Below are positions 910-53,359 of a stretch of 56,349 nt of DNA, piece after piece. Source of the stretch: a bacterium. Its GTDB lineage: Bacteria; Patescibacteriota; Minisyncoccia; CAIUEV01. The position numbers and the translations under genes are program-made. Location: contig JAJXZR010000001.1 of NCBI GenBank assembly GCA_021779915.1, forward strand, positions 1-56,349, given 5' to 3'. Positions within the stretch are counted from its first letter, which is position 1; the number at the start of each line of letters is the position of its first letter. The notes beneath the pieces were generated by a model, which searched no databases, was not told the origin of the DNA, and saw only the letters and a program-made list of their open reading frames with translations.

Positions 910-1007
910 TTAGTTCATAAAGTTCATAAAGTTCATAAAGTTCTCTTGGATGAATATGTTCCTATCAACTTTACAAACTTTATAAACTTTCTAACTTTCT
1001 AAACTAA
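910..1007. repeat. Family A: inverted arrays of ~9-mer units (AAAGTTYAT / ATAAACTTT) with TTAGTT...AACTAA ends
   Basis: ttagttcataaagttcataaagttcataaagtt ... aactttacaaactttataaactttctaactttctaaactaa. Confidence 0.85.
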
Positions 1008-3145
1008 TTTAGGCTTTCTGGTTCAATATCAATTTTTACGCCGTTTGGTAGGTTTGCTAGGATTTTATTGATGGGAAATTCTTTTTGGGTTTTTAAAATA
1101 AGGGTGGTGAAATAAGACCCTTTTTTGTAATAAGTTTCTCCAGGAGCGATGAAAGACTCTAAAACCCCTTGTCTTGTTTTTAATTTATCGGCGAGGAAAC
1201 TGGCTTTCTGTTGGGATTCCATGCGGGTTTTCCCAGAGACTTCTAGCTTTACCAAAAGAGAAAAAGGAGGGTATTGAAAGGTTTTTCTTTGATTAAGCCA
1301 GAGGGGAAATAGGGAGGAATAAGTGCTTGCAATAATTTTTTCAAGAAAAGGATGATTGGGATTGGAGGTTTGGAGAATTATTTTAGGAGAAATGGAAACA
1401 AGATTGAAAAAACGGGAAGCTAGAACCTCCTCGCTGTTATAGTTTGGATTGTAAAGTAAACTGTCAAAGGAAACAAAAGAAGCAATTCCGACTTGTTTTT
1501 TAAAAAGGCGCAATAGGGCTATCATCCCTCCATAGCCCACAACAATGCAAGGTTTACCAGCATTGTCAACCAACTTGTTCCAAAAATTAAGATATTGTTT
1601 AAAAGTGGATTTGGCATCAATGGGAACCAGAAGTTCGAAATCAATTTCCTTTTTAATTTTGAGGAGCTCTTCTTTAACTTTTTCAATTCCAGCTCCCGGA
1701 AAGTAAAAATTTGAACCTTGGCATTTTGGACATTTTCCCAATGATTTATCGACGAAGGAACAATTATGACATTCGAGCCTGGAATTTTTGTTGAGAAACA
1801 AAGGTTTTTGACAGTTGGGGCAATTAGGTATGTAGCCACAGTCCCGACAGATTGTCAATCTGGCAATTCCTTTACGTCCAGCTAAAATAACAACCCATTT
1901 TTTCTTAAGAAGGGATTTTTTGATGCTGTCCTTAAGATATTGGGAAATAATGCTGTCTTTTTCATTTAATTTGGCCTCTAATTTCAAATTAATGATCGAA
2001 ATTTTTGTTTTTTCTCCTTGGAAAGAGACGGTTTGCGTTATTTTGTGAGGGGGGTTTTCTTCCGGTTTTTCGGAAATGCTTTCTGATTTACTATTCGGAA
2101 AATTAAATTTTATAATTTTATTATTTTTTAAAAAGTAGGGTGAGTTAAAAAAATCTTCAAGTCTTGGAGTTTGGCTCAAGTAGAGCTTTAGCACGTTGTC
2201 ATAAAGAGTCGGCAAAACAGATCTGACATCATAACGTGGCGACATATCCCATTGTTTAAAATTGGGATCGTGCCCATCTTCCAGAATGACTAAACCTAAT
2301 TTCAAAAAAGGAGCAAAAATTGAAGATCTTGTCCCTATGAAAATAGCGGGGCGTAAATTTTGAGCAAGCTGCCAACCTTCTCTGAAAGCGGTATGGGGCA
2401 AAGCTTTACTTAGGATTATTGGGCTTGAAACAGAAACTTTTTGGGCAAGCAGATAATATTTAGCACAAACAGGTAACAGTTGCGTTTTTTCTGGAACCAC
2501 GATTAATACCTGTTCTCTTTTTTGAATAGTTTTGACAACTATTTTTTGAAGTTCAGAAGTTTGATTTTGAGACAAGAACACATAGGGCAGTTTTTGTCCC
2601 TTCTCAAAAAGAAGATTCTCTTTTTTCTTATCTGTATTTTTGATAGGGGCAAGATAGTCTACCAATTCGACCATTTTCCCAAAAGTTGCCAAGTAGCTTA
2701 TTTGACTGTGTTTGCCCATTTTTGGATCTTGAGCGATGTATTTGGCAAAATGGTTCCAGGAAACCAAATAATGTTCAGATAGAATTTTTGATTTCCGTAT
2801 TAAATTTTCTGGAAAATATTTTTTGGCTGTTACGCTGATAATTTCTCTAATTTTAATTTTTGGAGGGATAAAACTGCAATAGAAATAATTTTTATTTCCA
2901 ATTAGCTTTCTTAAATTGGTCTCCCAAATATTCCCTTTGAAATTGGGTGTTACTATTTTTTGCAGTTTTACTACAACTCCCTTTTTTATGCTTCGACGAA
3001 AGGGAACTTCAATCAGATCTCCGGTTTCAGGATAGAGGTCTGGTTCTCTTGAGTAGTAAAAGAAAGTAGAATTGTTTTTATAAGGAAATCGTTGAAGTAG
3101 AAGAACCTCAAGCAGAGTTAAGGTTATATATTCTTTTTTAGGCAA
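1004..3145 (-). CDS. priA: Primosomal protein N' (PriA) with degenerate helicase motifs
   Basis: N-terminal VPF..GVV 3'-DNA-binding region, VLIVVPE, IGTRSSIFAP, FKQWDMSPRYD, four CxxC pairs, QTSNPNHP, YPPF; TTG start. Confidence 0.88.
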   Translation of the reverse strand: MPKKEYITLTLLEVLLLQRFPYKNNSTFFYYSREPDLYPETGDLIEVPFRRSIKKGVVVKLQKIVTPNFKGNIWETNLRKLIGNKNYFYCSFIPPKIKIREIISVTAKKYFPENLIRKSKILSEHYLVSWNHFAKYIAQDPKMGKHSQISYLATFGKMVELVDYLAPIKNTDKKKENLLFEKGQKLPYVFLSQNQTSELQKIVVKTIQKREQVLIVVPEKTQLLPVCAKYYLLAQKVSVSSPIILSKALPHTAFREGWQLAQNLRPAIFIGTRSSIFAPFLKLGLVILEDGHDPNFKQWDMSPRYDVRSVLPTLYDNVLKLYLSQTPRLEDFFNSPYFLKNNKIIKFNFPNSKSESISEKPEENPPHKITQTVSFQGEKTKISIINLKLEAKLNEKDSIISQYLKDSIKKSLLKKKWVVILAGRKGIARLTICRDCGYIPNCPNCQKPLFLNKNSRLECHNCSFVDKSLGKCPKCQGSNFYFPGAGIEKVKEELLKIKKEIDFELLVPIDAKSTFKQYLNFWNKLVDNAGKPCIVVGYGGMIALLRLFKKQVGIASFVSFDSLLYNPNYNSEEVLASRFFNLVSISPKIILQTSNPNHPFLEKIIASTYSSLFPLWLNQRKTFQYPPFSLLVKLEVSGKTRMESQQKASFLADKLKTRQGVLESFIAPGETYYKKGSYFTTLILKTQKEFPINKILANLPNGVKIDIEPESLN

Positions 3146-3182
3146 TTGAATGATTTAAAACCAAGAAGTTTTTTAGAGAAGG

Positions 3183-7998: not shown

Positions 7999-8005
7999 CA
8001 AAATA

Positions 8006-8119
8006 ATGTAAAATTAAAAGATCAAAATGCAAAATTGAGGAGTCGCCTTAGGCGACAATCAATTGAATGTTGCGATTAGCGACACCACAATTTTCCATTT
8101 TGATTTTTGCATTTTAAAT
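8006..8119. repeat. Family C: 7-mer (AAAATGY-type) inverted arrays enclosing two GTCGC-loop-GCGAC hairpins
   Basis: aaaatgcaaaattgaggagtcgccttaggcgac...gcgacaccacaattttccattttgatttttgcatttt; similar copies at 22983, 33006 and 50278. Confidence 0.85.
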
Positions 8120-8158
8120 TATGCGCTTGTACAAAAATAACCAAAACACGTCTGGTGT

Positions 8159-9094
8159 TCAGACCAAATTGCTTCTCCAATTCTTCAATAAACTCAAATC
8201 CCGAGCCATTCCTTCCGGGGTTGGTGTTTCTAAAATCACGTCTGTATTATAATCCTCTTTATAAAAATAGTCTACTAAATTTAAAAAAGCTTTTTCTCCG
8301 ATTTTACCCTGGCCCAAGTGGGCGTGGCGATCTACTTTGGAATCAAATTCAGCCAGAGAGTCGTTAAAGTGGATAAGTTTTAATTTGTCCCTGCCAATCC
8401 ACTTTTCCATTTTAATGAGGTTGGATTTTATTTCTTCAGTAGTCCGAAAATCATAGCCGGAAGCAAATGCATGGGCAGTGTCCAAACAAAATCCACTGAG
8501 AGCGGGAACAGCCTCAAGATAGTAGGATATTTCTTCAAAGGTAGCTCCTAACACCGCTCCAGAACCGGCGGATATTTCAATAAGGAGAGGAATATTTTTT
8601 TCTTGTCCGGCAATTTTTTCCAGTCCCGCAACCACTCTTAAAAAGGCACTTGGATCAAACTTTCTTTTTTGAGCCAGAACTAAAAGCTCCTTAAAATATT
8701 TTTTAGAAAAACTCTCTGAGTAATTTTGCTCAAAAAGAGGTGTTTCAATTTTAAAATCCCTAGCGCTTCCCAAATGAGTTACGACGTATTTTGCTCCAAG
8801 AATCTTAGCTCTTTTAAGATCTTCTTTAATCGCATTGATAGAGCCAAAAAAAATTCGATTGTCTTTGGAAGCAAGATTGATGAAATAAGGAGTGTGGATA
8901 TAATAATTTTTTAAACCAAGCTTCTTCAATCCCTCTTTAAATTCTTTTACTTCGGCTTCTTCGAGTTCTTTTGCTTTTCCTCCGTGAGGAGAACGAGCAA
9001 AAAATTGAAAACACTCTCCGCCAAGAGATTCCACTCTCTCGGGAATTTTTGTAATACCACCGGAAGCACTGACATGGAAACCAAAGCGTAACAT
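8159..9094 (-). CDS. nfo: Endonuclease IV (AP endonuclease)
   Basis: GFHVSASGG, QFF, HTPYFINLAS, HLGS, EISAG, CLDTAHAFASGYD, HFNDS, DRHAHLGQG, ILETP. Confidence 0.95.
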   Translation of the reverse strand: MLRFGFHVSASGGITKIPERVESLGGECFQFFARSPHGGKAKELEEAEVKEFKEGLKKLGLKNYYIHTPYFINLASKDNRIFFGSINAIKEDLKRAKILGAKYVVTHLGSARDFKIETPLFEQNYSESFSKKYFKELLVLAQKRKFDPSAFLRVVAGLEKIAGQEKNIPLLIEISAGSGAVLGATFEEISYYLEAVPALSGFCLDTAHAFASGYDFRTTEEIKSNLIKMEKWIGRDKLKLIHFNDSLAEFDSKVDRHAHLGQGKIGEKAFLNLVDYFYKEDYNTDVILETPTPEGMARDLSLLKNWRSNLV

Positions 9095-9149
9095 TTCAAA
9101 TAATTAAAAATGTAAAATGCAATAAATATTTTTTAAGAAACGAGCTTAC

Positions 9150-9293
9150 GTGTCATCCCCGGCGTGTCGACCGGGGATCCAGGCGGATAGTATTAATCTA
9201 GTAGAATATTGTTTTGTTTAGTTTTCTAAGAATGCACATTGAACTAACATTCAATTAGTCTAACTGGATCCTGGGTCAAGCCCGGGATGACAC
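9150..9293. mobile_element. Family B REP-doublet / MITE-like element, copy 1
   Basis: GTGTCATCCCCGGCGTGTCGACCGGGGATCCAG ... CTGGATCCTGGGTCAAGCCCGGGATGACAC; five related copies in the window. Confidence 0.8.
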
Positions 9294-9334
9294 TGTCAAA
9301 TTAGTTTCTTGAAGTATCTATTACCCATTTATTT

Positions 9335-10942
9335 TTATTTTAGTGCATCTAGCAAACTGTTTCCTACCATATCATGAGGAACGGGGATATTCAATAAAGC
9401 AAGAATAGTAGGAGCGATATCCACCAACATTCCGTCCACCATGCTTTGATGGCGCATAATTTGGGTTTCTGTCCGCTCTTTTTGATTGTCCGGCGTCACA
9501 AAAAAACAAGGAACGGGATTGTCAGTGTGCTCTGTGGTAACTTCTCCGCTCTTGGGATCCATCATTACCTCAGCATTGCCATGATCCGAAGTGATAAGTA
9601 AACTACCTCCTCTCTCCAAAACGGATTTTGTTACATACCCTACACATTTATCAATTGATTCAACTGCTTTTACCGTTGCGCTAAAATTTCCGGTGTGTCC
9701 CAACATATCCGCGTTAGCGTAGTTGATGAGAATAAAATCGTATTTATTGAGGCTGATTGCATTTAGGACTTTTTCCGTTACCCCCGCTGCGCTCATTTCC
9801 GGGGTTTCTTCATAATTACTGACCTGTGGCGAAGGAACTAACATTCGGTCTTCTCCGGGAAAAGCCTCTTCACGACCACCATTAAAAAAATAAGTGACAT
9901 GGGCATACTTCTCTGTTTCGGCAATATGAAACTGTTTTTTTCCGGTATCAGAAATCACTTTGGCGATAGGGTTAACCACTTTTTGAGGTGGAAAAGCAAC
10001 ATCCGAATTAAGCCCGTCTTCGTAAGAAACTGTGGAAATAAAAAGGAGGTCGCGAATTTTTTTATCCCTTGGAAAACCATTAAAATCTTCTTCTATAAAG
10101 GATTTTGCGATCTGTCTGGCGCGATCTTCGCGAAAATTAAAGAATATGATAGCATCACCTTCGCGAACTGGACCAACGGGATCTCCTTTTTCATCAATTA
10201 TAGTTGTTGGCACTATGAACTCATCGGTAACGTTTTGATTATAAGAATCATGAATAACTTGCATGGGATCGGTCGCTTTATTTTCCCCGTTGCCAGTAAT
10301 TGAATTATAAGCTTTTTGAATTCGATCCCAATTTTGATTGCGATCCATACCGTAGTATCTTCCTCCAATGGAAGCTATTTTTCCAATCCCCGATTCGGTT
10401 AATTTTTCCTGAAGCATTTCAATAAAACCTTCTCCTGATTTTGGCAAAGTATCTCGACCATCGGTAAAAGCATGAATAAAAAGTTTTTTAATTCCGCTAC
10501 TGATCGCCATTTCAATTAATGCAAAAAGGTGGTCGGTGTGTCCATGTACCCCGCCATTAGATATAATGCCCATTAGATGGAGGGCACTTCCCTTTTTTTT
10601 GACGTATTCCATCGCTTCAAGGTATGCTGGATTGGTAAAAAAGGTACCATTCTGAATGGCTAAGTTGATGCGGGGCAAATTTTGATAAAGTATCATTCCT
10701 GAACCTATTGTCATATGTCCTACTTCTGAGTTGCCTGGTTCTCCCCAAGAAAGCCCTACAGATATTCCTGAGGCTTGGAGTGCAATACAAGGATAATTTC
10801 CTTTCAAATAGTTAATATAGGGAGTCTTGGCACTGGCTATAGCATTGCCTTCGATAGAAGAATTGATACCCCATCCATCAAGTATCATAAGGACAATTGG
10901 CCGGTATTCCTTGACGGTATTTATTGAGTTTTGAAAAGACAT
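9335..10942 (-). CDS. gpmI: 2,3-bisphosphoglycerate-independent phosphoglycerate mutase
   Basis: ILDGWG, GNSEVGH, GGVHGH, DGRD, GRYYGMDR, AETEKYAHVTYFFNGG, DMLGHTG, SDHGNAE. Confidence 0.97.
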   Translation of the reverse strand: MSFQNSINTVKEYRPIVLMILDGWGINSSIEGNAIASAKTPYINYLKGNYPCIALQASGISVGLSWGEPGNSEVGHMTIGSGMILYQNLPRINLAIQNGTFFTNPAYLEAMEYVKKKGSALHLMGIISNGGVHGHTDHLFALIEMAISSGIKKLFIHAFTDGRDTLPKSGEGFIEMLQEKLTESGIGKIASIGGRYYGMDRNQNWDRIQKAYNSITGNGENKATDPMQVIHDSYNQNVTDEFIVPTTIIDEKGDPVGPVREGDAIIFFNFREDRARQIAKSFIEEDFNGFPRDKKIRDLLFISTVSYEDGLNSDVAFPPQKVVNPIAKVISDTGKKQFHIAETEKYAHVTYFFNGGREEAFPGEDRMLVPSPQVSNYEETPEMSAAGVTEKVLNAISLNKYDFILINYANADMLGHTGNFSATVKAVESIDKCVGYVTKSVLERGGSLLITSDHGNAEVMMDPKSGEVTTEHTDNPVPCFFVTPDNQKERTETQIMRHQSMVDGMLVDIAPTILALLNIPVPHDMVGNSLLDALK

Positions 10943-10947
10943 GGGTA

Positions 10948-11042
10948 TTAGTTTAGAAAGTAAAAAGTTTAGAAAGTTTAGAAAGATATTTTTTAAAAAC
11001 CACTTTCTAAACTTTCATAACTTTCCAAACTTTCTAAACTTA
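10948..11042. repeat. Family A 9-mer inverted array
   Basis: ttagtttagaaagtaaaaagtttagaaagtttagaaag ... ctttctaaactttcataactttccaaactttctaaact. Confidence 0.85.
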
Positions 11043-11145
11043 TTAGTTCATTATCCTTTTCAATTATTTTTTCGACAACTTTTAAATCAGATGTTAAAAA
11101 ATGGTTGTAAGACAGATAGATTAAATAACAATTAATATAAACAAA

Positions 11146-11337
11146 ATGAAGGTCACCGTTGACAAAACAAAGTGTATTGGTTGTGGAGCTTGTGCCTCCA
11201 TTGAACCGGCTGTTTTTATGATCAATCCGGAAGACGGAAAATCACAGGCCGATCAAAATAATGTGGCTGGTCGAGAAGACGCTTGCAAAGAAGCAGCCAG
11301 TGTTTGTCCAGTCGGAGCAATTGTTATTGAAGAGTAA
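11146..11337 (+). CDS. Monocluster ferredoxin
   Basis: CIGCGAC..P and CPVGAI motifs in 63 aa. Confidence 0.93.
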   Translation: MKVTVDKTKCIGCGACASIEPAVFMINPEDGKSQADQNNVAGREDACKEAASVCPVGAIVIEE

Positions 11338-11377
11338 AAATTAATTTCAAATTATTTTTAATTTTTAAAAATACAAA

Positions 11378-12397
11378 ATGCCAATAAGAATTGCCATCAA
11401 TGGTATGGGGCGAATAGGGAGAGCTGCTTTTAAAATTGCCATGGAAAGACCGGACGCGACAATCGTTGCCGTCAATGATCTTACTGAACCTAAAGATTTA
11501 GTTTATCTTTTAAAACATGATTCTGCTTACGGATTGTGGGATAAAAAAATTGATGCAAAAGAGAATGAAATAAAGGTGGGGGAGAAGGTAATTCCGTTTT
11601 TCAAGGAACCCGATCCAGAAAAATTGCCATGGAAAAATCTTGATGTTGATGTTGTGCTTGAATGTACGGGAATTTTTAGAAATAAAGAAAAAGCCTCCAA
11701 ACATTTGACTGCTGGGGCAAAGCTGGTTATTTTGAGCGCTCCCCCTAAAGATGAAGATATCCGAATGTTTCTGATGGGATGCAACGAAAAAGAATTTAGA
11801 GCCGGACAGCACAAGATTATTTCCAATGCTTCCTGTACTACCAATTGTTTGGCTCCGGTAATCAAAGTGTTAAACGATGAATTCGGTGTTGAACAAGCTT
11901 TGATGACGACCGTCCACAGCTATACAGCGAGCCAAGCTTTGGTTGACGGGCCAGCTAAAGAAACTCGAGAAATGAGAGCAGCCGCCCTCAACATTATCCC
12001 CTCAACAACTGGGGCGGCAATCGCGGTAACAAAGGTTTTACCGGAGCTGAAAGGACGTTTTAATGGAATGGCAGTAAGAGTTCCCTCACCGGTAGTTTCT
12101 GCTTCTGATCTTGTGGTAAAACTGAGACAGACCGTAAGTGCTGAAAAAGTAAACAACGCTTTTATTGCGGCTTCTAATGGAGCGATGAAAGGAATTATTG
12201 AAACTAATTCTGAAGAATTGGTATCAACTGATTTTAAAAAGAATCCCCATTCTTCCATAATTGACTTAGATCTTACAATGACAGTAGGTGGCGACTTAGT
12301 AAAAGTATTCGCTTGGTACGATAATGAATGGGGATACAGCGAAAGATTGGTCGATTTAACTTTATATACAGGATCAAAGATTAAAAAGGAGGAGTAA
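11378..12397 (+). CDS. gap: Type I glyceraldehyde-3-phosphate dehydrogenase
   Basis: INGMGRIGR, SNASCTTNCLAP, PSTTGAA, WYDNEWGYS. Confidence 0.98.
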   Translation: MPIRIAINGMGRIGRAAFKIAMERPDATIVAVNDLTEPKDLVYLLKHDSAYGLWDKKIDAKENEIKVGEKVIPFFKEPDPEKLPWKNLDVDVVLECTGIFRNKEKASKHLTAGAKLVILSAPPKDEDIRMFLMGCNEKEFRAGQHKIISNASCTTNCLAPVIKVLNDEFGVEQALMTTVHSYTASQALVDGPAKETREMRAAALNIIPSTTGAAIAVTKVLPELKGRFNGMAVRVPSPVVSASDLVVKLRQTVSAEKVNNAFIAASNGAMKGIIETNSEELVSTDFKKNPHSSIIDLDLTMTVGGDLVKVFAWYDNEWGYSERLVDLTLYTGSKIKKEE

Positions 12398-12411
12398 GGA
12401 TATTAACTTTT

Positions 12412-13488
12412 ATGCTTAGACTAAAAAAATTTTGGCACGCTTGGCAAAGCCGTTGGCGTTTCGATATTGGAATTGACCTAGGAACGGCCAATACTTTGGT
12501 TTATGTCAAGGGAAAAGGCGTCATAATTAATGAACCCTCAGTTGTTGCGGTCAATAAAAAGACCGGCAAGATTTTGGCAATTGGTACGGAAGCTAAAAAA
12601 ATGGTAGGAAAAACCCCGGCTCATATAGTTGCAACGAGACCTTTAGTCGAAGGAGTGATTTCCGATTTCGAAGTAACCGAGCAGATGCTGACTTATTTTA
12701 TTAACAAAGTGCGGGATGGTCGTTTTTCTTCTTTAATTAAACCAAGAGTCTTGGTGGGAATTCCTTCTGGTGTGACGGAAGTGGAAAAAAGAGCCGTTCA
12801 AGAGGCAACTCTTTCCGGAGGAGCGGGTGAAGCGTACTTAATTGACGAACCGATTGCGGCAGCCATTGGTGCCCGGCTTCCCATTCAAGAAGCAGGAGGA
12901 AATATGATTGTGGATATCGGAGGAGGAACTTCGGAAATTGCGGTAATTTCTCTTGGAGGAGCGGTGGTGGCAAAGAGTTTGCGAGTAGGAGGAGACAAAA
13001 TGAATGAGGATATCATCAACTATGTCAGGGAAAATTTCAGTTTGCTTCTGGGTGAAAAAACGGCTGAAGATGTAAAAGTAGCGATTGGATCGGCCTACCG
13101 CCTAGATCAACCGATAAAAATCGCTATTCGAGGAAGAGACCTGATAACTGGTCTTCCTAAAGAAATTGAAGTGAGCGACAGTGACATTCGCCAGGCTACT
13201 CAAAAATCGGTAAGAATTATCATAAACACCATAAAAACAGTTTTAGAAACCACGCCTCCTGAACTTTTGGGAGATATTATGCGAAGAGGAGTGATTCTGG
13301 CTGGCGGAGGAAGCTTGCTTCGCGGGCTTGATCGATTGATTGCCGAACAAACCGAGATGCCAGTAAAGGTGGTTGATGATCCTCTTACGGCAGTAGTAAG
13401 AGGAACCGGAATCGTCCTGGAAGACATCGACGAACTTCGCTCAGTTCTTATTGACACATATGTTGAAGATAATAAACCTAAGTGGTAA
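12412..13488 (+). CDS. mreB: Rod shape-determining protein MreB
   Basis: GIDLGTANT, EPSVVA, DIGGGTSE, LAGGGSLLRG. Confidence 0.97.
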   Translation: MLRLKKFWHAWQSRWRFDIGIDLGTANTLVYVKGKGVIINEPSVVAVNKKTGKILAIGTEAKKMVGKTPAHIVATRPLVEGVISDFEVTEQMLTYFINKVRDGRFSSLIKPRVLVGIPSGVTEVEKRAVQEATLSGGAGEAYLIDEPIAAAIGARLPIQEAGGNMIVDIGGGTSEIAVISLGGAVVAKSLRVGGDKMNEDIINYVRENFSLLLGEKTAEDVKVAIGSAYRLDQPIKIAIRGRDLITGLPKEIEVSDSDIRQATQKSVRIIINTIKTVLETTPPELLGDIMRRGVILAGGGSLLRGLDRLIAEQTEMPVKVVDDPLTAVVRGTGIVLEDIDELRSVLIDTYVEDNKPKW

Positions 13489-13490
13489 TA

Positions 13491-13573
13491 TAAGTTTGTA
13501 AAGTTTGTAAAGTTAAAAAGTTAAAAAATATTTACTTGATGAACTTTATAAACTTTATAACTTGATGAACTAA
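13491..13573. repeat. Family A 9-mer inverted array
   Basis: aagtttgtaaagtttgtaaagttaaaaagtt ... acttgatgaactttataaactttataacttgatgaactaa. Confidence 0.85.
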
Positions 13574-13578
13574 TACAA

Positions 13579-15897
13579 ATGTCTCAAAACAAAAAAATTG
13601 CCCTGCTAATTTCGGTTTTTTCCTTGGCTCCTGTGTTTGTAGTTGCCCAGGACAAACTCGTGAATTGTTCAGGGATGGACTGTTCTTTTTGCTCTTTAAT
13701 TGAAATTTTCAGTTTGACGAGTAAATGGATTTTTTCCATCTCAGCGACTGTCGCAGTTTTCCTCCTAGTAATAAGCGGGCTTTATTATATTTTTTCTATT
13801 GGAAACAACCGATACCTAAAAATTGCGAGACTAACTGCTGTATACTCGGCTTTGGGTTTTTCTTTCATTCTGGTGGCTTTTTTGGTAGTTAGTACAATAA
13901 TTTGGATGTTGGGAGGAAAGAAAGAAGGAAGTTTTCTTAGTTTTGAATGTACGGTAATGAATTATGCTGATGAAAAAGATGCTAGCCTTGCAACAGATAC
14001 TAGTCCTTGGTCGGAAATTCCTTACACACAAAACATAAATAAACTAATATCTGACAAATTAGGAGCTATCGTACTTGATAATAATACTAATCCACAAAAC
14101 TTAAGCCAGGATCTTTTAGATATGAATCCTGATAACACTTTAAAGGCTATTATTGCAAGCAGTAGCTTGACTGCGGATGATATTATGAATTATATAAAAT
14201 ATACTAATGGCTATACCGACAATCTGAAAAATATTGATCCAGCCAAAATTAATGAATATGTTGCTTCTTTGCAAAATAAGATTCAAGAAGTTGCTTCAAT
14301 CAGCCGAACAGATGCAGATGTTAGCATAGATGGAAAAAATAATTATTCTAATATTTCCGGTGACTATCCAGTTGAAGACGGAACTTTATCTTCGGCGATT
14401 AGTAAATTGATTAACAGCTTAAAGAGTAAAAAAGCTTCTGGCAGTACAGTGATTTATCCTGATGCCAAATCTTCTAATACCATGAATTTATGCATTGATT
14501 CAGGAGGGGATTGGACTCAGTTTCAAAACGAATGCAAGGCTTTAGGAGGCACTAATTGTTCAGATGTCTCCAATCCAACGATGGGTTGCCAGTGTCCAAG
14601 CGGGATGACTCTTTTTCATAACCAATGCATAAAAAATTCTGACTATAAATCAAGTAGCAGTGCAGATAAAGACGACGATGGAGATGGAATAACCAATAAT
14701 CTTGATAAATGCCCAGGAACACCTAAGGGAGAAATTCCTGATAAAGATCCCTCCAGTTCCCGTTTGGGTTGTTCCTGTTCTCAAATTGCCCTTCAAACCA
14801 GAACTTGTCCTGCCACTCGTTGTGAAGGAACGAATCTGGTAACTTATCCAGGTTCCGGAAAAGATCTTTGTTTTAATGGAATGGTGACTGAACATTCCTG
14901 TGACGCAGTAAAAACTGAAGTGGTAAGCCAATGCCAAACTATTAGCCAAATTACCAATCCCACCCAACAGGAAAACGTAGCCAAGCAGGATCCTGATCTT
15001 TATAATAAAATCAAAGATGCTTTGAATCGTAACAAAGGCTCTAATAATGGCTCTGGCGGAAGCGGAGGGGGTACAGGCGGAGGCGGTAACACAGGAGGTG
15101 GCGGTAATACGGGAGGCGGTAATACGGGAGGGGGTAATACCCAACCAGACGGAAATATTCCTCCTGACAAAGGACCAGGCAGTTTCAACCCTTCTCCCAG
15201 CTTCAAAGAAATGGCCGAATGTATCGGTTTCAAGGATGGAAAAATTCCCTATAATGGGGTTATAGTCCTCCTTTTGAACAAGGAAGATCCTACTAATGCT
15301 CTACACCCCAGTCGAAACGCTAGTAGACTTTTTTATTTGGACAGAAACGGACAGGTAGTTGGGATGAACGGAGATAAAGGAACAGAGCAGGGTGGTCTGC
15401 CAGCGGGTCCTTGGACGAAAGGAAGTGGAGGAACAGCTTGGTCGCCAGGTTTTACTTTTTTCAATGCGCAAACCGTTCATGTTAATGGCAGTCCCGACCC
15501 TTGTTCTTTTAAATCAGGTGCTGGAGTAAGTTGTGGTCCACAAGGGGAAGGAAAATTAAGTAACGGTCAGTTGGGAGGAGATAAATTTGAGGGAATGTCG
15601 GGATGCAATATGCATTCTGGAAACAACCGTTCTCATTCTAGAGGTTGTTTGACGATGGGGGGTAAAGAAAGGTGCGGTTTTACTAATGATATAAAATCAA
15701 TGGCCACCCAAAATCAAGGAAAAATCATGATGGCGACGCTGACGGCCGAAAATACTGATAAAAATGACCCACATGTTAAAAGCGATTATTGCGGAAAAAT
15801 GGATCCTTACAAAGCAATTGACAAATATAAAAATCAGAAAGATTCTAGTTTTGACCCATTTCAAGGGTATTCCGGCGGGGATTCCAGGGGGAAATAA
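13579..15897 (+). CDS. CPR pilin-domain (VirB2/TrbC-like) fusion protein with Cys-rich/TSP3-like region, Gly-rich linker and C-terminal YkuD-like domain
   Basis: Signal peptide, LVNCSGMDCSFC then two TMs with G-x-Y-x-x-S-x-G...A spacing; DDDGDGITNNLDKCPGTP; (GGNTG)n; SGCNMHSGNNRSHSRGCLTMG. Confidence 0.75.
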   Translation: MSQNKKIALLISVFSLAPVFVVAQDKLVNCSGMDCSFCSLIEIFSLTSKWIFSISATVAVFLLVISGLYYIFSIGNNRYLKIARLTAVYSALGFSFILVAFLVVSTIIWMLGGKKEGSFLSFECTVMNYADEKDASLATDTSPWSEIPYTQNINKLISDKLGAIVLDNNTNPQNLSQDLLDMNPDNTLKAIIASSSLTADDIMNYIKYTNGYTDNLKNIDPAKINEYVASLQNKIQEVASISRTDADVSIDGKNNYSNISGDYPVEDGTLSSAISKLINSLKSKKASGSTVIYPDAKSSNTMNLCIDSGGDWTQFQNECKALGGTNCSDVSNPTMGCQCPSGMTLFHNQCIKNSDYKSSSSADKDDDGDGITNNLDKCPGTPKGEIPDKDPSSSRLGCSCSQIALQTRTCPATRCEGTNLVTYPGSGKDLCFNGMVTEHSCDAVKTEVVSQCQTISQITNPTQQENVAKQDPDLYNKIKDALNRNKGSNNGSGGSGGGTGGGGNTGGGGNTGGGNTGGGNTQPDGNIPPDKGPGSFNPSPSFKEMAECIGFKDGKIPYNGVIVLLLNKEDPTNALHPSRNASRLFYLDRNGQVVGMNGDKGTEQGGLPAGPWTKGSGGTAWSPGFTFFNAQTVHVNGSPDPCSFKSGAGVSCGPQGEGKLSNGQLGGDKFEGMSGCNMHSGNNRSHSRGCLTMGGKERCGFTNDIKSMATQNQGKIMMATLTAENTDKNDPHVKSDYCGKMDPYKAIDKYKNQKDSSFDPFQGYSGGDSRGK
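15046..15141 (+). repeat. Coding tandem repeat encoding a Gly-rich (GGNTG)n linker
   Basis: ggcggtaacacaggaggtggcggtaatacgggaggcggtaatacgggagggggtaatacc. Confidence 0.85.
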
Positions 15898-15940
15898 GAA
15901 AACATAAATCTCTAAATAATATTTAAATTAAAATTCGGTT

Positions 15941-16414
15941 ATGAAGATCAAAGTTACTTGGGGAACCGGGACGGGAAACACTCTTTTGAGTTCTTTCGAC
16001 AGTGCTTTATTTGATGCGGGAATTGCTAATTATAATTTGATTCCCTTAAGTTCGGTCATTCCTCCCAAATCTAAAATCGAAGTGAAAAAAATAAATCTGC
16101 AAGAATCAAAAAAAGATTTTGGTAAAAGGCTTTATGTGGTTTTAAGTCGCAATTGTACCGCTAAAAAAGACGCCAGTATTTTTGCCGGAGTAGGCTGGGT
16201 CATGAATGAAAAAGAGCAAAAAGGCTTGTTTGTTGAACATCACGGGGAAAGTGAAAAAGAAGTTGAAACTTTGATAAAAAAATCCTTAACTGACATGACT
16301 GTTTACCGCAAGGATAGTTTTGGAGAAATCAATATGAAAATAACTGGCATAAAATGCACTGGAAAACCAGTTTCGGCACTAGTTTGTGCGGTTTATAAAG
16401 TCAGTAAATGGTAA
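15941..16414 (+). CDS. pdaD: Pyruvoyl-dependent arginine decarboxylase
   Basis: GTG...LSSFDSAL.DAGIANYNLIPLSSVIPP (Ser-Ser autocleavage site), G..LYVV, GLFVEH. Confidence 0.88.
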   Translation: MKIKVTWGTGTGNTLLSSFDSALFDAGIANYNLIPLSSVIPPKSKIEVKKINLQESKKDFGKRLYVVLSRNCTAKKDASIFAGVGWVMNEKEQKGLFVEHHGESEKEVETLIKKSLTDMTVYRKDSFGEINMKITGIKCTGKPVSALVCAVYKVSKW

Positions 16415-16421
16415 AAAAACA

Positions 16422-16642
16422 TGTCATCCCCGGCGTGTCGACCGGGGATCCAGGAGAATAGAAAATTGCACTAATTAGTCTAATTATACTAATTGACCTA
16501 AAAAAGCACCAAGCACTAAATAATAAAATAAAATCTTAGAAATTGGTTTTCGAGAGTTTGTTTAGAATAATTAAGTTAATTAGTACAATTAGAATAATTA
16601 GTGAGTTTAACTGGATCCCCGGTCGACACGCCGGGGATGACA
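16422..16642. mobile_element. Family B element, copy 2: perfect 32-bp terminal inverted repeats around a family F (CTAATTATA-type 9-mer) array
   Basis: 16422-16453 is the exact reverse complement of 16611-16642. Confidence 0.88.
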
Positions 16643-16661
16643 CATTTTTTAAACTAATTTA

Positions 16662-17558
16662 ATGCCTGAGCTTCCCGAAGTTGAAACTGTAGTTCGCAGT
16701 CTTAAGAAGAAAATTATTGGAAGGAAAATCAAGAAGATCTGGACTGATTGGCCGAGGGGCGTTAAGAATTCAACTGAAAAAGAATTGAATGAAAAGCTCA
16801 ATGGCAAGATATTCTCTAAAGTTCAAAGAAGAGGTAAAAATATTCTTATTGAAATCGGAGAAAAATATACACTTTGGATTCATCTCAAAATGACCGGACA
16901 TTTGATGGTTCGACCGGTTTCTTTTTTCGGTAAAAAGTTAGATGAATTCAAGGGAAAAGAACTGGAAAGTCCTTTTTCGGAAAAAGTGAATCAGTATATT
17001 CATTTTAGAATCATCTTGGATAAAAATGAAGAATTAGCTCTTTCAGACCTGCGAAAATTTGCCAAAATAACGTTTATCGAAGAGCCGATTACTCAAAAAT
17101 TAGTTAGCTCGATGTTTTTTGATCTCGGACCGGAACCCTTAGAAAAAGAATTTACTTTGGAAAAATTTTCTGAGATTCTTAAGAATAAGAAAAATCAGAA
17201 TAAAGAATTAAAAATATTCTTACTGGATCAATCAGTAATTTCCGGTATTGGAAATATTTATGCCAGTGAAATTCCTTTTGAGGCGGGGATTAGTCCAAAA
17301 AGAAGGATAAAAACTCTAAAGAAACAAGAAAAAGATAAACTTTACAATGCAATTTTAAAAATTCTAAAACTTGCGGTAAAAGAAAGAGGCACCAGCATTA
17401 GTGATTTTCGTAACCCAGATGGTAACAAAGGAAATTTTGGCAATCTAAGAAAAGTATACCAAAGAAAGAATCAAAAATGTTCCAATTGTGAAGGAACCAT
17501 CGAATCTTTCAAACAAGGCCAAAGAACCACTTTCTGGTGTCCGAAATGCCAGAAATAA
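16662..17558 (+). CDS. mutM: Formamidopyrimidine-DNA glycosylase (Fpg)
   Basis: MPELPEVET, RRGK, HLKMTG, GIGNIYASE, C-terminal CxxC...CPKCQ zinc finger. Confidence 0.97.
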   Translation: MPELPEVETVVRSLKKKIIGRKIKKIWTDWPRGVKNSTEKELNEKLNGKIFSKVQRRGKNILIEIGEKYTLWIHLKMTGHLMVRPVSFFGKKLDEFKGKELESPFSEKVNQYIHFRIILDKNEELALSDLRKFAKITFIEEPITQKLVSSMFFDLGPEPLEKEFTLEKFSEILKNKKNQNKELKIFLLDQSVISGIGNIYASEIPFEAGISPKRRIKTLKKQEKDKLYNAILKILKLAVKERGTSISDFRNPDGNKGNFGNLRKVYQRKNQKCSNCEGTIESFKQGQRTTFWCPKCQK

Positions 17559-20539: not shown

Positions 20540-20578
20540 CTTGATAAACTTGAAAAACCTTATAACTTGAAAAACTAA
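20540..20578. repeat. Family A half element
   Basis: cttgataaacttgaaaaaccttataacttgaaaaactaa. Confidence 0.7.
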
Positions 20579-20656
20579 GTTTTTTGTTGACTTTTTCTAA
20601 TATTTGTCTCACTATAACCCTCGAAAAAGCTGTTTAACAATTCGAGGAGGAACAAG

Positions 20657-22987: not shown

Positions 22988-23089
22988 AAATTAAAAATGG
23001 AAAATTGTGGTGTCGCTTCGCGACAATTAATTGAAGGTCGCCAAGGGCGACACCTTAATTTTGCATTTTGATTTTTACATTTTTAATTT
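22983..23089. repeat. Family C element
   Basis: aaaatggaaaattgtggtgtcgcttcgcgac...gtcgccaagggcgacaccttaattttgcattttgatttttacatttt. Confidence 0.85.
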
Positions 23090-33005: not shown

Positions 33006-33119
33006 AAATGAAAAATGTAAAAATCAAAATACAAAATTATTGAGTCGCCTTGATCGACAATCAATCAATCGTCGCTGTAGGCGACACCATAATTTTACAT
33101 TTTGATTTTTACATTTTTA
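33006..33119. repeat. Family C element
   Basis: aaaaatgtaaaaatcaaaatacaaaattattgagtcgccttgatcgac...gtcgctgtaggcgacaccataattttacattttgatttttacatttt; lies between convergent ftsK and yraN. Confidence 0.83.
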
Positions 33120-33120
33120 T

Positions 33121-33549
33121 TTATATCGTCACATATTTATAGTGTTTTAATTTTACCTTTTTAATCGACCTAATTATTATCACACTGATTAGATCGATTC
33201 TCCATTCGGGGAAAGTGTAGGGGGCTAAGTCCCGGAAATAGGGTTCCCAAAGCTCGGGTTCTTTTTCAAGAAATAGCCAGGCAGTTTTTTCTATTTTTTT
33301 GAGCTTGCGAGAATTTACAGAGTCTTCTGGAATTATGGAAAGCGGATTGTAGATATTTTCCATTTCATACAGCCACTTACTTCTCACTTCAACAAAAACA
33401 ATTTCTTGTCTTCTTGAGTCATAAACAATAATATCCACTTCCCCTTTTTTGTGGGAATAATTTCGGGCGATTATTTGATAATTTCTCTGTTTTAAAAAAG
33501 AAACAGCGATATTTTCAGCATAATTGCCCTGGGATTTAGTATTTTTCAT
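33121..33549 (-). CDS. yraN: YraN (UPF0102) family nuclease
   Basis: G..AE..A..FL...Y.II.RNY..KKGEVDII, VFVEVR, RIDLI; adjacent to comM. Confidence 0.9.
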   Translation of the reverse strand: MKNTKSQGNYAENIAVSFLKQRNYQIIARNYSHKKGEVDIIVYDSRRQEIVFVEVRSKWLYEMENIYNPLSIIPEDSVNSRKLKKIEKTAWLFLEKEPELWEPYFRDLAPYTFPEWRIDLISVIIIRSIKKVKLKHYKYVTI

Positions 33550-35265: not shown

Positions 35266-35313
35266 AAGAGAAGATAAATTTTTTCTAAAAAAAAGATAAA
35301 ACGAAAATCAAGA

Positions 35314-35362
35314 TTAGTTCTTCAAGCTATAAAGTTTTTCAAGTTTATCAAGCAATAAAGCT
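35314..35362. repeat. Family A half element
   Basis: ttagttcttcaagctataaagtttttcaagtttatcaagcaataaagct. Confidence 0.7.
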
Positions 35363-38664: not shown

Positions 38665-38786
38665 AAATTTAAAAAATCTGTTTTTTAGTATTTTTTTATC
38701 AATTTCTTGTTGCGGAACTCGCTTCGCTCAGACAGTCCTCACAAGAAATTGATAAAAAAATACTAAAAAACAGATTTTTTAAATTT
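38665..38786. repeat. Family D long palindrome, copy 1: perfect 46-bp arms around a 30-nt conserved core
   Basis: 38665-38710 is the exact reverse complement of 38741-38786; core TGCGGAACTCGCTTCGCTCAGACAGTCCTC. Confidence 0.92.
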
Positions 38787-38860: not shown

Positions 38861-39088
38861 ATGGTTCAAATTATAGCGATAGTCCAGGTTGTATCAGCCA
38901 TTCTTCTCACAATTGTAGTTCTTTTGCAAAACAGAGAGGGCGGTGCTTCCGGCGTTTTAGGTGGGGAAGGAGTAGGAGGTTCGTTTTACACGAAACGAGG
39001 TCTTGACAGAGGGCTTTTTTACGGAACCGTAGTTTTAGGGGTTATCTTTTTTATGAGTGCTATTGCCAGTTTTTTTGTGAGTAAATAA
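38861..39088 (+). CDS. secG: Preprotein translocase subunit SecG
   Basis: VLLQ...GG.SG..GG...FYTKRG.DR.L, two TMs, 75 aa. Confidence 0.92.
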   Translation: MVQIIAIVQVVSAILLTIVVLLQNREGGASGVLGGEGVGGSFYTKRGLDRGLFYGTVVLGVIFFMSAIASFFVSK

Positions 39089-39123
39089 ATTTGCAATTGT
39101 ATTCCAAAAAATAATATAAAAAA

Positions 39124-40766: not shown

Positions 40767-40910
40767 TTAGTTTATCAAGTTAGAAAGTTTATCAAGTTCA
40801 TTAAATAAGAACTATAATGAATAGATAAGAAAACGCAATAAAACAAAAAACAAACCTATAGCAACAGAGATCATAATAAAAAAGTTTGCTTGATAAACCC
40901 AATGAACTAG
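40767..40910. repeat. Family A element with a long internal spacer
   Basis: ttagtttatcaagttagaaagtttatcaagttca ... cttgataaacccaatgaactag; the terminal CTA is the TAG stop of the upstream GT gene. Confidence 0.65.
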
Positions 40911-42789: not shown

Positions 42790-42907
42790 TATTCTAAAAT
42801 CTATTTTTTGAGTATTTTTTATTAGTTTCTTGTGAGGACTGTTCGAGCGAAGCGAGTTCCGCAACAAGAAACTAACAAAAAATACTCAAAAAATAGATTT
42901 TAGAATA
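42790..42907. repeat. Family D long palindrome, copy 2: 44-bp arms with one mismatch, core inverted relative to copy 1
   Basis: Arms 42790-42833 and 42864-42907; core GAGGACTGTTCGAGCGAAGCGAGTTCCGCA. Confidence 0.92.
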
Positions 42908-44951: not shown

Positions 44952-45076
44952 ATCGAATTTCAAAATAGTTTTTGAGGAATTTTTTCTTAATTTATTGTGA
45001 GGACTTGTGTGAGCGAAGCGAGTTCCGCAACAAGAAATTAAGAAAAAATTCCTTAAAAACTATTTTGAAATTCGAT
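44952..45076. repeat. Family D long palindrome, copy 3: 47-bp arms with two mismatches
   Basis: Arms 44952-44998 and 45030-45076; core GAGGACTTGTGTGAGCGAAGCGAGTTCCGCA. Confidence 0.92.
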
Positions 45077-48346: not shown

Positions 48347-48418
48347 AAAAATATGTTAAAATAATTTTTAGAATTATACCTTGTAGGAATTGTAGAATAA
48401 ATAAAAAGAAAAGACCAT

Positions 48419-48663
48419 GTGCCATTCCGGGCTTGACCCGGAATCCAGGATAGTAAAACTTAAAATTCCAAGAAACAAGAGACAAATTGCAAACAAATTC
48501 AAGCATCACAAATTCCAAATAAAAAAAATAATGTTTTGAATTTGGAAAATTGTATCTTGTTTGCCTGCCTGCCGGTAGGCGGGTAATTTGTTTCTTGGAA
48601 TTTGGAATTTTGCTAGATTAATTCTATCCTCCTGGATCCCCGGTCGACACGCCGGGGATGACA
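48419..48663. mobile_element. Family B element, copy 4, enclosing a 7-mer (AAATTCC-type) inverted array that itself contains a family E palindrome
   Basis: gtgccattccgggcttgacccggaatccag ... [cctgcctgccggtaggcggg at 48564-48583] ... ctggatccccggtcgacacgccggggatgaca. Confidence 0.83.
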
Positions 48664-48691
48664 TATATTTGAAAATTTTAATTAAATCCCA

Positions 48692-50278: not shown

Positions 50279-50393
50279 TTAAAATTAAAAATGCAAAATT
50301 AAAAATTGTGGAGTGAGCTGTCGCTCACATTTTAATTAATTGTCACTTTTAGCGACACCGAAATTTTGCATTTTGCATTTTTAATTTTGAATT
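50278..50393. repeat. Family C element
   Basis: aaaatgcaaaattaaaaattgtggagtgagctgtcgctcac...gtcacttttagcgacaccgaaattttgcattttgcatttt. Confidence 0.83.
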
Positions 50394-50399
50394 AATATT

Positions 50400-51871: not shown

Positions 51872-52094
51872 TGTCATCCCGGACTTCTTGCCTAACGGTA
51901 GCAAAGAAGCGGGGTCTAGGTTAGTTTCACTAATTATTCTAATTGTTCTAATTATACTAATTGATCTAAAAAACACCAAAAACCAATAAATAAAATTTTT
52001 AAAAAATGGTTCTTGTGAATTTGTTTAGAATAATTAGATTAATTAGAATAATTTAAAAAGTTACTGGATCCCAGCTCGGAGGACGGGATGACAC
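51872..52094. mobile_element. Family B element, copy 5 (degenerate), with a family E insertion and family F cargo
   Basis: tgtcatcccggactt[cttgcctaacggtagcaaag]aagcggggtctag ... ctggatcccagctcggaggacgggatgacac; interior aligns with that of copy 2. Confidence 0.75.
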
Positions 52095-52110
52095 ACTTTT
52101 TTCGATCTAT

Positions 52111-52149
52111 CTTTATAAACTTGATAAACTTTATGAACTTTATGAACTC
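52111..52149. repeat. Family A half element overlapping the probable GT4 start
   Basis: ctttataaacttgataaactttatgaactttatgaact. Confidence 0.75.
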
Positions 52150-53359
52150 ATCTTCGCCCGAAATCCTTCTAATCACCCGCCCGCTCACCCCCCCTTGGGA
52201 CGAGGCTAGCAAGAATTTGGCTTATACAATTGCAAAAAATATTACCGAATATAAATTTCATATTCTGGTAGGGAAGTATGATTCAACTCTTCCCAAACAC
52301 ATTACCCAACATTTGATTTATAAAGGGGCTGATTGGACGGGAATCCAAAAAACCCGTTTAATTTTGTCACTTCCTAAAATTTTAAAAAATAATCCCGGGA
52401 TAAGCATTGCCCATCTACTTTTCGCTCCAACTCCCCTTAACACTCGAGTGCTTGGGACTATTCTAAAAAGATTCGAAGTACAAATCATTCAAAATCTGGC
52501 TTGCCCCCCTCAAAACAAAAAAACCAATCTTAATTTTGCAGACAAAATCATTGTTTATTCCAAATATACCGCAGAGAGGATCAATCAAAAAAACGTCAAT
52601 ATAATTCCGCCTTTCATTGATTTTGAAAAATTTCCGGTTCTAAGTGAAAAGGCAAGAAGTGATTTAAGAAAGAAATGGAGAATTGGAGAGAATGACAAAA
52701 TAATACTTTTTCCGGGAGAATACAGCCGATTAAACGCACTGGGAACGCTTTGGAAAGGATACACAGGATTAATTTCCAATTTCCAATTTCCAACCTTGCC
52801 TACCGGCAGGCAGGTTTCCAAAAAATTTTCAAGTTCCAATGACAAAATTAATTTAAAGCTTTTTATGGCGTGTCGGATTAAGAATAAAAGAGATTTGGTA
52901 TTAGAAAAAAAGTTTAAAAAACTGGTTAATTTAAGTCAATTTAAAGATAATGTGTGGTTTCTGGGTAAAATTGAGAAACCGGAAGAAATGTATCAGATTG
53001 CCGACTTGACTGTCTTCCCAGTTAAAAAAATGGAAGGGAAGTTTGATTTTCCCTTTGTCTTGCTTGAATCCTTAGCTTGCGGAACACCCGTTTTAACCAG
53101 TGCTATTGGGGCGCTTTCTGAGATTTGGAGAGGAGAAAAAGAGTATGGAGAAAAATACGTTTTTGAAAAAGAGGAAGAATTCGTGAGAAAAGCTGGTGAA
53201 ATTTTAGAAGGAGAAAAGAAAAAGGATGATCTATCTAATTTTGTAAAAGAAAAATTTTCTAAGGATAAAATTCTAAGAAACTACAAGGAGATTTATGATT
53301 TAGGAAATATTTTTTATTCTAGTACGAAGAAAAATCTTAAATCTAACCTACCATTGTAG
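52142..53359 (+). CDS. GT4 (GT-B) glycosyltransferase carrying an in-frame repeat-derived insertion
   Basis: ILLITRPL.PPWDE, ADKII..S, IIPP.ID, FLG, ADL.VFP, P.VLLESLACGTPVL.S.IG..SEI; the ORF-track ATG at 52088 lies inside a family B hairpin, so 52142 or 52133 is preferred. Confidence 0.88.
   Translation: MNSSSPEILLITRPLTPPWDEASKNLAYTIAKNITEYKFHILVGKYDSTLPKHITQHLIYKGADWTGIQKTRLILSLPKILKNNPGISIAHLLFAPTPLNTRVLGTILKRFEVQIIQNLACPPQNKKTNLNFADKIIVYSKYTAERINQKNVNIIPPFIDFEKFPVLSEKARSDLRKKWRIGENDKIILFPGEYSRLNALGTLWKGYTGLISNFQFPTLPTGRQVSKKFSSSNDKINLKLFMACRIKNKRDLVLEKKFKKLVNLSQFKDNVWFLGKIEKPEEMYQIADLTVFPVKKMEGKFDFPFVLLESLACGTPVLTSAIGALSEIWRGEKEYGEKYVFEKEEEFVRKAGEILEGEKKKDDLSNFVKEKFSKDKILRNYKEIYDLGNIFYSSTKKNLKSNLPL
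52771..52848 (+). repeat. Intragenic AATTTCC 7-mer array plus family E palindrome (52795-52814)
   Basis: aatttccaatttccaatttccaac[cttgcctaccggcaggcagg]tttccaaaaaattttcaagttccaatgacaaaa, translated as ISNFQFPTLPTGRQVSKKFSSSNDK. Confidence 0.85.

Follow-up and report, generated by a model that had tools for sequence, protein, structure and literature searches.

The stretch of DNA analysed here, hereafter the window, is an entire contig (JAJXZR010000001.1, our C39) of 56,349 bp and about 37% G+C, from a Patescibacteria genome of 1.118 Mb assembled in 48 contigs and estimated to be some 96% complete. Its genes, which include those of glycolysis, MreB/MreC, PriA, DnaG, FtsK, a few ribosomal proteins and one tRNA-His, are the gene set of a reduced, fermentative bacterium, and the junctions between them are crowded with hairpin-forming repeats. 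Locating these by a tandem-repeat scan, an inverted-repeat scan and a listing of all spacers, we distinguish four kinds: T elements, which are paired repetitive extragenic palindromic (REP) hairpins; array hairpins (A, C and related forms), built of short tandem units; D elements, which are long palindromes; and small GC palindromes. There are 40 intergenic spacers of at least 20 bp in the window, summing to 5,170 bp. Matches to other loci of the genome occur in 21 of the 40 and cover 2,900 bp (56%) of the intergenic bases, and 2,612 bp (51%) match at least three further copies. The window tally is five T elements, four full and five half A arrays, four C elements, three D elements and four E-type palindromes (three matches to the E core and one variant read from the sequence). 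This agrees with a first-pass annotation of the same DNA, which had counted about 25 copies from at least six families occupying many gene junctions. The families do not stand apart from one another: modules are common among them, and a single twin-hairpin core is found with three different heptamer arms. Counted genome-wide, there are 277 T termini, 81 AGTT arrays, 15 C cores, 15 D elements and 22 E cores. Folded as single-stranded DNA (ssDNA) and compared with shuffled sequences, the elements gave z scores of -3.1 (A), -6.8 and -10.6 (C) and -13.4 to -14.6 (D). The repeats are genuine; most lie between genes, and chance would not produce them in anything like these numbers.

T elements are head-to-head pairs of TGTC-tagged REP hairpins. 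One end of the five window copies consists of YG and TGTCATCC, the hairpin and GGATCCAGG, with the reverse complement at the opposite end. The termini of the whole genome include 107 facing pairs, in size classes of about 29, 94, 140 and 215–240 bp, the 29-bp class being a single hairpin between GTGTC and GACAC. The main hairpin variant, ATCCCGGG-CTTGA-CCCGGGAT followed by CCA, has an 8-bp stem beginning with AT and a 5-nt loop, and further variants have longer loops or inserts within the loop. The tag is well kept: among 99 pairs, a G stands directly before TGTCATCC in 83 and a C directly after GGATGACA in 87. CGTC REPs, as characterised in the sections of Di Nocera, De Gregorio & Rocco (2013, PMC3733652) that define them, often have TGTC as their tag, with a stem of 8–9 bp starting with A-T, a loop of 4–5 nt, a CCA tail and an arrangement in head-to-head dimers, so that the (C/T)GTC tag, stem, loop, tail and dimer are all alike in the two. 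T elements also match the pattern of Ssn-related motifs (SRM) and come close to the NTS motif printed with the Neisseria dRS3/NTS repeats, as far as these are set out in the relevant part of Chenal et al. (2025, PMC11893778). The SRM pattern has 163 matches in this genome, compared with 1.1 +/- 1.2 (maximum 4) in 20 dinucleotide shuffles. A looser hairpin pattern has 233 matches here and 1–14 in 14 of the 40 relatives that form our comparison set, several of the latter being the Neisseria motif letter for letter, whereas the exact local T hairpin (at most 2 mismatches) has 136 matches here and none in the 40 relatives. In T, then, a hairpin class that is widespread and already described has expanded in one lineage. 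T differs from CGTC REPs and SRM in that its hairpins are held 80–190 bp apart by an unrelated array hairpin, giving composites of 140 and 215–240 bp, in the inserts carried by its loops, in the lack of any Ssn-type gene found in this genome and in its host, a Patescibacteria genome of about 1.1 Mb.

Array hairpins comprise AAGTT 9-mers (A), arms of 7-mers (C) and the CTAATT or AAATTCC arrays that T elements carry as cargo. A elements are inverted runs of AAGTTnnnn with TTAGTT and AACTAA as outer ends; their arms have the AAGTT core in common while the variable letters differ, and one-armed copies are frequent. Counting AGTT arrays of at least three units, we found the 81 mentioned above at period 9, in 61 loci, compared with 0–22 at periods 7, 8, 10 and 11 and 1–6 for four control cores. 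The outer ends of A arrays lie against gene ends (26 cases) as often as against gene starts (20), and we dropped the idea that they are promoter or 5' untranslated region elements. The C core is a pair of twin hairpins, GTCGC..GCGAC, a linker and again GTCGC..GCGAC, joined to heptamer arms of the types AAAATGN, AATGACG and AAAGTTR. One C element (33006–33120) lies directly beside a gene for YraN/UPF0102, a predicted endonuclease (33121–33549), a single case from which no association can be claimed. Elsewhere in the genome (C34; L005 1791–2060) an A-type 9-mer hairpin comes after a tRNA-Ser gene, and beyond it stands a partial second copy of the 5' part of the tRNA, itself containing a small GC hairpin insert; the site has the appearance of a tRNA gene at which a repeat inserted, with a duplication.

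The window arrays enclose no gene, and versions of them that do exist outside it. Each of the four PF05635 genes in the genome is bracketed by a pair of tandem-unit arrays in inverted orientation, the units being CATGAAA and AATGACG heptamers (C9), CTAATT 9-mers (C11) and GYWRCAAG octamers (C28). The CTAATT cargos of two window T elements share 92–94% identity over 31–42 nt with the C11 arms (element 2, 94% over 31–35 nt to the arrays flanking the gene at C11:7718–7945; element 5, 93% over 42 nt), and the match spans the junction that in C11 leads into the start of the PF05635 gene. Among the relatives we surveyed 14 PF05635 loci in eight genomes, of which five are clearly bracketed on both sides, one weakly and two on one side; one further gene lies inside a 16S rRNA gene (genome G007), four are without arrays and one stands at a contig start. 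Two of the five clearly bracketed loci, in G005 and G007, have AAGTT 9-mer arms, the G005 copy also having an ATTAGTT end; no AAGTT-armed copy bearing the gene was seen in this genome itself. Judged by their sequences, the array hairpins are best explained as gene-less miniatures of PF05635-carrying hairpin cassettes. Two identical PF05635 genes in a sister genome (L064 and L072; G003 C4 and C5) have no tandem-unit arms and sit inside a larger apparent coding region, whose product may be intein- or Hint-like.

The family PF05635, named '23S rRNA intervening-sequence protein', is similar to Avd, a protein of diversity-generating retroelements (DGRs), according to the portion of a DGR review concerned with it (PMC10053308). 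That review is the only paper that a literature search on 'PF05635' returned, and we found none describing a link between array hairpins and intervening-sequence (IVS) cassettes. The IVS of Coxiella burnetii is described, in the part of the source that bears on it, as a selfish hairpin element with an S23p/PF05635 open reading frame (ORF) (PMC4990558). The cassettes found here are like rRNA IVS in having a small gene for a four-helix bundle within the loop of a long hairpin, and in the G007 gene lying within 16S; they are unlike them in standing between protein-coding genes, in having arms of tandem 7–9-mers and in being gene-less in nearly all copies. Hairpin inserts were also seen in rRNA genes, two in 23S (C42 ~35,700–36,010; L085 2225–2505) and one in 16S (C6 ~9,450; L086). 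They are gene-less, have arms of the CCCGCTCCAC/GTGGGGCGGG type and contain at their tip GAGCGAAGCGA, an 11-mer that also forms the centre of the D tip.

Avd is a nucleic-acid-binding accessory protein, and the 7–9-mer arrays could accordingly be arrays of binding sites, for the PF05635 protein or for a global regulator, with the palindromic layout forming paired operators. Such sites would explain an AAGTT core with variable neighbours, arms that need no exact complementarity and the existence of one-armed arrays, and the Avd-like nature of PF05635 (in the portion of PMC10053308 cited above) would fit them too. Similar arrays are indeed known: Geobacter metallireducens has opposite-strand pairs of 3–5 tandem units of 7–9 nt, in tens of copies per genome, and Aklujkar et al. 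(2009, PMC2700814) give classes 1–3 of these as 'putative global regulator binding sites', although the unit sequences there differ from ours and the section of that paper dealing with them draws no link to PF05635 or to mobility. However, many unrelated units coexist in a single genome (AAGTT, CTAATT, AATGACG, AAAATGC, AAATTCC, CATGAAA and GYWRCAAG) with only four PF05635 genes, and relatives lack the elements at the orthologous junctions. We consider it improbable that the arrays are binding sites, and such a role would in any case be compatible with selfish spread.

The different kinds are also nested. E is a 20-bp palindrome, CCTGCCTGCCGGTAGGCAGG, and by inspection all 22 of its cores in the genome lie within another repeat, nine in T loops and the others in 7-mer, 9-mer and heptad hairpins; T elements in turn enclose CTAATT or AAATTCC arrays. 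The nesting described in the first-pass annotation is thus borne out. Repeat DNA also overlaps a gene. The longest ORF of the glycosyltransferase gene (52088–52160 region) begins within a T terminus and crosses an A array, and its relatives align only from residue 13–24 of this long ORF, so that the real start lies downstream and the first 20 or so codons are repeat DNA. Within the same gene, 7-mers and an E palindrome are in frame, and the homologues are shorter at exactly the linker that bears this repeat, by 15 (G004), 13 (G001) and 10 (G003) residues. Rickettsia palindromic elements (RPE) are a known case of a palindromic repeat translated in-frame inside a gene of a reduced genome. The in-frame repeat is alike in both, but here it is one case in the window and an E/7-mer module, not a T hairpin, whereas RPE are named as CGTC-1/-4 members in the classification given by PMC3733652.

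D elements are built differently. The 15 copies in the genome share a 34-nt tip, GTGAGGACYGTYTGAGCGAAGCGAGTTCCGCAAC, on stems that in 10 copies run ungapped for 43–49 bp with 0–2 non-Watson-Crick positions and in the other five have a one-base bulge; the sequence of the arms differs among copies and is complementary within each. GCGAAGC, which forms a very stable DNA mini-hairpin, is part of the centre of the tip. A 21-mer of the tip is rare among relatives: allowing up to 2 mismatches, we found it in 3 genomes, our own included, out of 401 in the class. The exact 21-mer occurs in 26 stretches of a genome collection, from 13 metagenome-assembled genomes (MAGs) that include Bacteroidales, Barnesiella, two Gammaproteobacteria, Janthinobacterium, Methylotenera, Pseudomonadota, Nitrospirota, Parcubacteria, Falkowbacteria and Saccharimonadia, and in 29 metagenome stretches of 35%–64% G+C. 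By eye, nearly all of these 55 stretches have the 21-mer at a hairpin tip on lineage-specific arms, several copies being one-armed. In two related metagenome contigs the tip stands before a ClpB-like gene, and the arms differ while each is internally complementary. One-armed D elements in opposite orientation flank dnaA in Parcubacteria GW2011_GWC2_42_12 (LCCP01000008, ~31.6 and 33.4 kb; L021/L029), a pair that adjoins rnpA and lies near the likely replication origin. The 21-mer had 0 matches in viral contigs and none in plasmids or E. coli genomes; Rfam gave nothing for the window at the gathering score, nor for six D loci at E values up to 0.1; and we found no paper holding the tip string. 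As far as these searches reach, the D tip is a new item. A partner gene for D was sought among the ORFs flanking 18 genome-collection loci and discarded, these being unrelated housekeeping genes, and a recurrent 'ORF' at GC-rich metagenome loci proved to be a spurious translation of the repeat itself.

Evidence on the history of the insertions comes from junctions compared, by DNA and by protein, with five genomes of the same family (G001–G005). Six junctions that are filled here are short in sister genera, and gap–mreB shows the reverse, with 14 bp here and 48–151 bp in relatives (Table 1, where an element-free junction serves as control). The elements are therefore not fixed at orthologous sites but present or absent between genera, contrary to the fixed pattern by which the first-pass annotation would have been refuted. 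The first-pass annotation had associated them with a shuffled gene order, a claim that did not survive the comparison: hyp352–APendo–iPGM–fdx–gap–mreB, pth–L18 and L18–S5–L15–miaB–corA each have the same order in one or more sister genera, and the elements thus fill conserved junctions. One genus (g4) did suggest pth–L18 as a rearrangement breakpoint. This was ruled out because the order in G001 and G002 is that of our genome; the difference upstream of L18 is peculiar to g4. After L18–S5–L15, all six family genomes have a MiaB-like radical-SAM gene and corA in place of secY (window 24335–28391; L050–L052, L083, L084), which makes this break of the ribosomal-protein cluster old and family-wide.

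Table 1. Repeat elements of the window, with the gene junctions at which they lie and, for junctions compared among genomes, spacer length here and in relatives (z, ssDNA folding score against shuffles).
Position (strand)	Element	Features	Junction or context	Spacer here (bp)	Spacer in relatives (bp)
908–1003	A	inverted AAGTTnnnn 9-mer arrays, TTAGTT/AACTAA ends; z = -3.1
8003–8122	C	A-rich 7-mer arm, twin GTCGC..GCGAC core, T-rich 7-mer arm; z = -6.8	hyp352–APendo	157	12 (G002), 23 (G003)
9149–9293	T, element 1	inverted SRM hairpin pair (SRM match 9151–9182), ~80-bp AT-rich hairpin cargo	APendo–iPGM	240	33 (G001), 89 (G002), 18 (G003)
10947–11048	A		iPGM–fdx, divergent	203	126 (G001), 139 (G002)
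	none (control)	element-free	fdx–gap	40	28–45 in sister genera
13491–13573	A		after mreB
16421–16643	T, element 2	SRM hairpins 16422–16453 and 16611–16642; CTAATT 9-mer inverted-array hairpin 16469–16603 inside	pvlArgDC–fpg	247	117 (G002, own AAGTT inverted array there)
20540–20580 (-)	half A
22988–23090	C		after xseA
23936–24106	T, element 3	left terminus degenerate; E palindrome 24066–24090 in right SRM hairpin loop	pth–L18	425	~220 (G001), ~150 (G002), by subtraction of gene coordinates
27408–27455 (+)	half A	single arm	miaB–corA	77	29 (G003), 30 (G004), 23 (G005)
28394–28473	A	diverged; only 2 other matching loci	after corA
33006–33120	C	z = -10.6	ftsK to YraN/UPF0102
35313–35360 (+)	half A
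38665–38786 (-)	D	46–48 bp perfect arms, conserved tip; z = -13.6
40767–40800 (+)	half A		beside start of holB-like gene
42790–42907 (+)	D	z = -14.6
44952–45076 (+)	D	z = -13.4
48418–48664	T, element 4	SRM pair around AAATTCC/GGAATTT 7-mer inverted arrays 48451–48615; E palindrome 48562–48585
50279–50399	C	core hairpins variant, unmatched by twin-hairpin pattern
51872–52095	T, element 5	SRM pair around CTAATT 9-mer hairpin 51928–52066; E-type insert 51884–51905 in left loop
52111–52148 (-)	half A		directly after T element 5, upstream of true glycosyltransferase start
52771–52848 (+)	7-mers and E	AATTTCC 7-mers and E palindrome	in-frame in glycosyltransferase gene (residues ~229–252)

Two small ORFs in long spacers, at 23100–23294 (after xseA) and 38861–39090, appear from their sequences to be XseB-like and SecG-like, respectively.

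Strong hairpins at gene junctions could be host regulatory RNAs, that is, terminators, insulators, RNase III processing sites or mRNA-stabilising stems under selection for RNA structure. The folds are very strong, most copies lie directly before or after genes, the D elements are biased in orientation relative to genes, and rRNA intervening sequences of similar build are removed by RNase III. Also, many REPs have been argued to be transcribed, in the discussion of that point in PMC3733652. However, a terminator role predicts depletion from divergent junctions, and the T pairs, with 69 tandem, 12 divergent, 10 convergent and 8 intragenic cases on crude gene calls, follow the genome baseline of 676 tandem, 132 divergent and 136 convergent junctions, divergent ones included. 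Sister genera with identical gene order lack the elements at the same junctions, half arrays and truncated copies are common, and one copy is translated within a gene. Nor are G-T pairs enriched among the mismatches of the D stems (about 4 of some 15 non-Watson-Crick positions in a hand tally), so that nothing there points to selection at the RNA level. We find it unlikely that the hairpins are regulatory RNAs of the host.

One might also suspect artefacts of the assembly or binning of this MAG, a draft in 48 contigs several of which end in T elements. But two public runs contain 95–96% of the sampled words from window 8000–17000 (four runs, all of one study, contain this stretch), copies lie inside long contigs between intact conserved genes, and related hairpins occur in other genomes, which makes an artefact scarcely credible.

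The window copies are non-autonomous, as the first-pass annotation proposed, since nowhere in the genome does a plausible mobiliser or transposase ORF lie within a T pair; pairs of 2,080 and 4,114 bp that do contain ORFs are merely two separate elements with ordinary genes between them. Direct repeats flanking T elements, sought at nine offsets around 99 pairs shorter than 300 bp, did not exceed chance, so that the check for target duplications gave none. Trans-acting enzymes encoded elsewhere had been suggested, with RAYT (REP-associated tyrosine transposase)/Y1 and GIY-YIG proteins as examples, and this reading is correct in its general outline. The first is the wrong main candidate, there being 0 matches to PF01797 in the genome; DUF559 has no match either. 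For GIY-YIG the picture is mixed. A sister genus (G002) has a 97-aa GIY-YIG gene exactly between inverted T-type hairpins (L056 1160–1186 and 1520–1546), an arrangement that the pages of PMC11893778 on ssnA report for that gene, and together with the PF05635 cassettes it shows that ORF-bearing versions exist outside the window. But tblastn of this protein against our genome gave nothing at E <0.1 (best E 0.60). A Pfam search of the genome for GIY-YIG yielded UvrC, a fragment of 42 aa and, on C34, a single intact gene of 78 aa; none of the three is flanked by T hairpins, the 96% completeness leaving room for an unassembled copy. The best explanation is that the cognate gene is missing here and that T copies are either orphans or served by another enzyme. 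Ssn itself cuts beside such hairpins in ssDNA, and the part of PMC11893778 treating its activity does not show that it copies them; propagation of the repeats by any of these proteins is something that we infer.

We think it fairly probable that selfish foldback repeats of several kinds, none with a gene of its own, have colonised the window, entering short junctions in this lineage and inserting into one another. T elements would be head-to-head dimers of CGTC-REP/SRM-class hairpins, which elsewhere are the ssDNA target of the small GIY-YIG nuclease Ssn. A elements, C arms and T cargo would be miniatures of an IVS-like cassette whose full form carries, between the same arms, a PF05635 gene for a predicted S23p/Avd-like four-helix bundle. 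E and the twin GTCGC hairpins would ride inside the other kinds, while in D the arms would drift among copies yet stay complementary under a tip conserved across phyla. Spread may proceed via single-stranded hairpin intermediates in replication or repair, not by classical cut-and-paste, and the complementarity of arms may be kept at the DNA level through intrastrand template switching. Mobility is suggested only by presence and absence between genera.

Several observations weigh against selfish spread as the explanation. Insertion here and loss there can be separated only by parsimony over three sister genera, no movement was observed, and a search of metagenome contigs for closer relatives, using a 772-aa window protein, found none. 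We found no catalytic mobiliser for any repeat family, and to our knowledge PF05635 has no known enzymatic activity. The 78-aa GIY-YIG gene on C34 is UPF0213-like and adjoins the tRNA-Ser gene with no T hairpins flanking it, and small GIY-YIG genes are present in 30 of the 40 relatives regardless of their hairpin count. The genome-wide junction statistics rest on crude gene calls (longest ORFs). D elements, finally, are found in divergent junctions in 6 of 12 intergenic copies, when such junctions make up 14% of the total, and in 5 of 6 tandem junctions of this genome their tip is on the strand opposite to the genes, as it is, in our own reading, in 9 of 12 co-directional junctions of other genomes; this bias of junction and orientation hints at a role at the level of the transcript or in the promoter region.

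Among known systems, REPIN/RAYT and miniature inverted-repeat transposable elements (MITEs) are like the repeats described here in being non-autonomous palindromic repeats at gene junctions, expanded in a lineage-specific manner. Our repeats are unlike REPIN/RAYT in that the tag is TGTC, not GTAG, and no RAYT gene was found; they differ from classical MITEs in that inverted termini are present but without target-site duplication or an insertion-sequence-type transposase with matching ends.

A 34-nt tip conserved across phyla implies a conserved factor that reads it. We propose tentatively, as a possibility to which we give less weight than to selfish colonisation of the window, that GTGAGGACYGTYTGAGCGAAGCGAGTTCCGCAAC marks an undescribed superfamily of hairpin repeats read in single-stranded nucleic acid by a conserved protein, and that this superfamily, on arms that are perfectly paired and particular to each lineage, would extend over the candidate phyla radiation (CPR), Bacteroidales, Proteobacteria, Nitrospirota and Saccharimonadia. 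The tip offers a defined 34-nt bait for a new hairpin-reading factor.

In a 1.1-Mb genome under strong reduction, hairpin repeats making up about half of the intergenic DNA of the window argue for active spread over passive retention. They also join three topics that are usually kept separate, namely CGTC REPs and Ssn motifs, the PF05635 (Avd-like) cassettes of rRNA intervening sequences, and the tandem-heptamer 'regulator sites'. If the D superfamily is true, it would be comparable to REP/RAYT and SRM/Ssn; taken with the PF05635 cassettes, it would imply that three or more independent selfish systems based on hairpins shape reduced CPR genomes, and that no classical transposase is at work in any of them.

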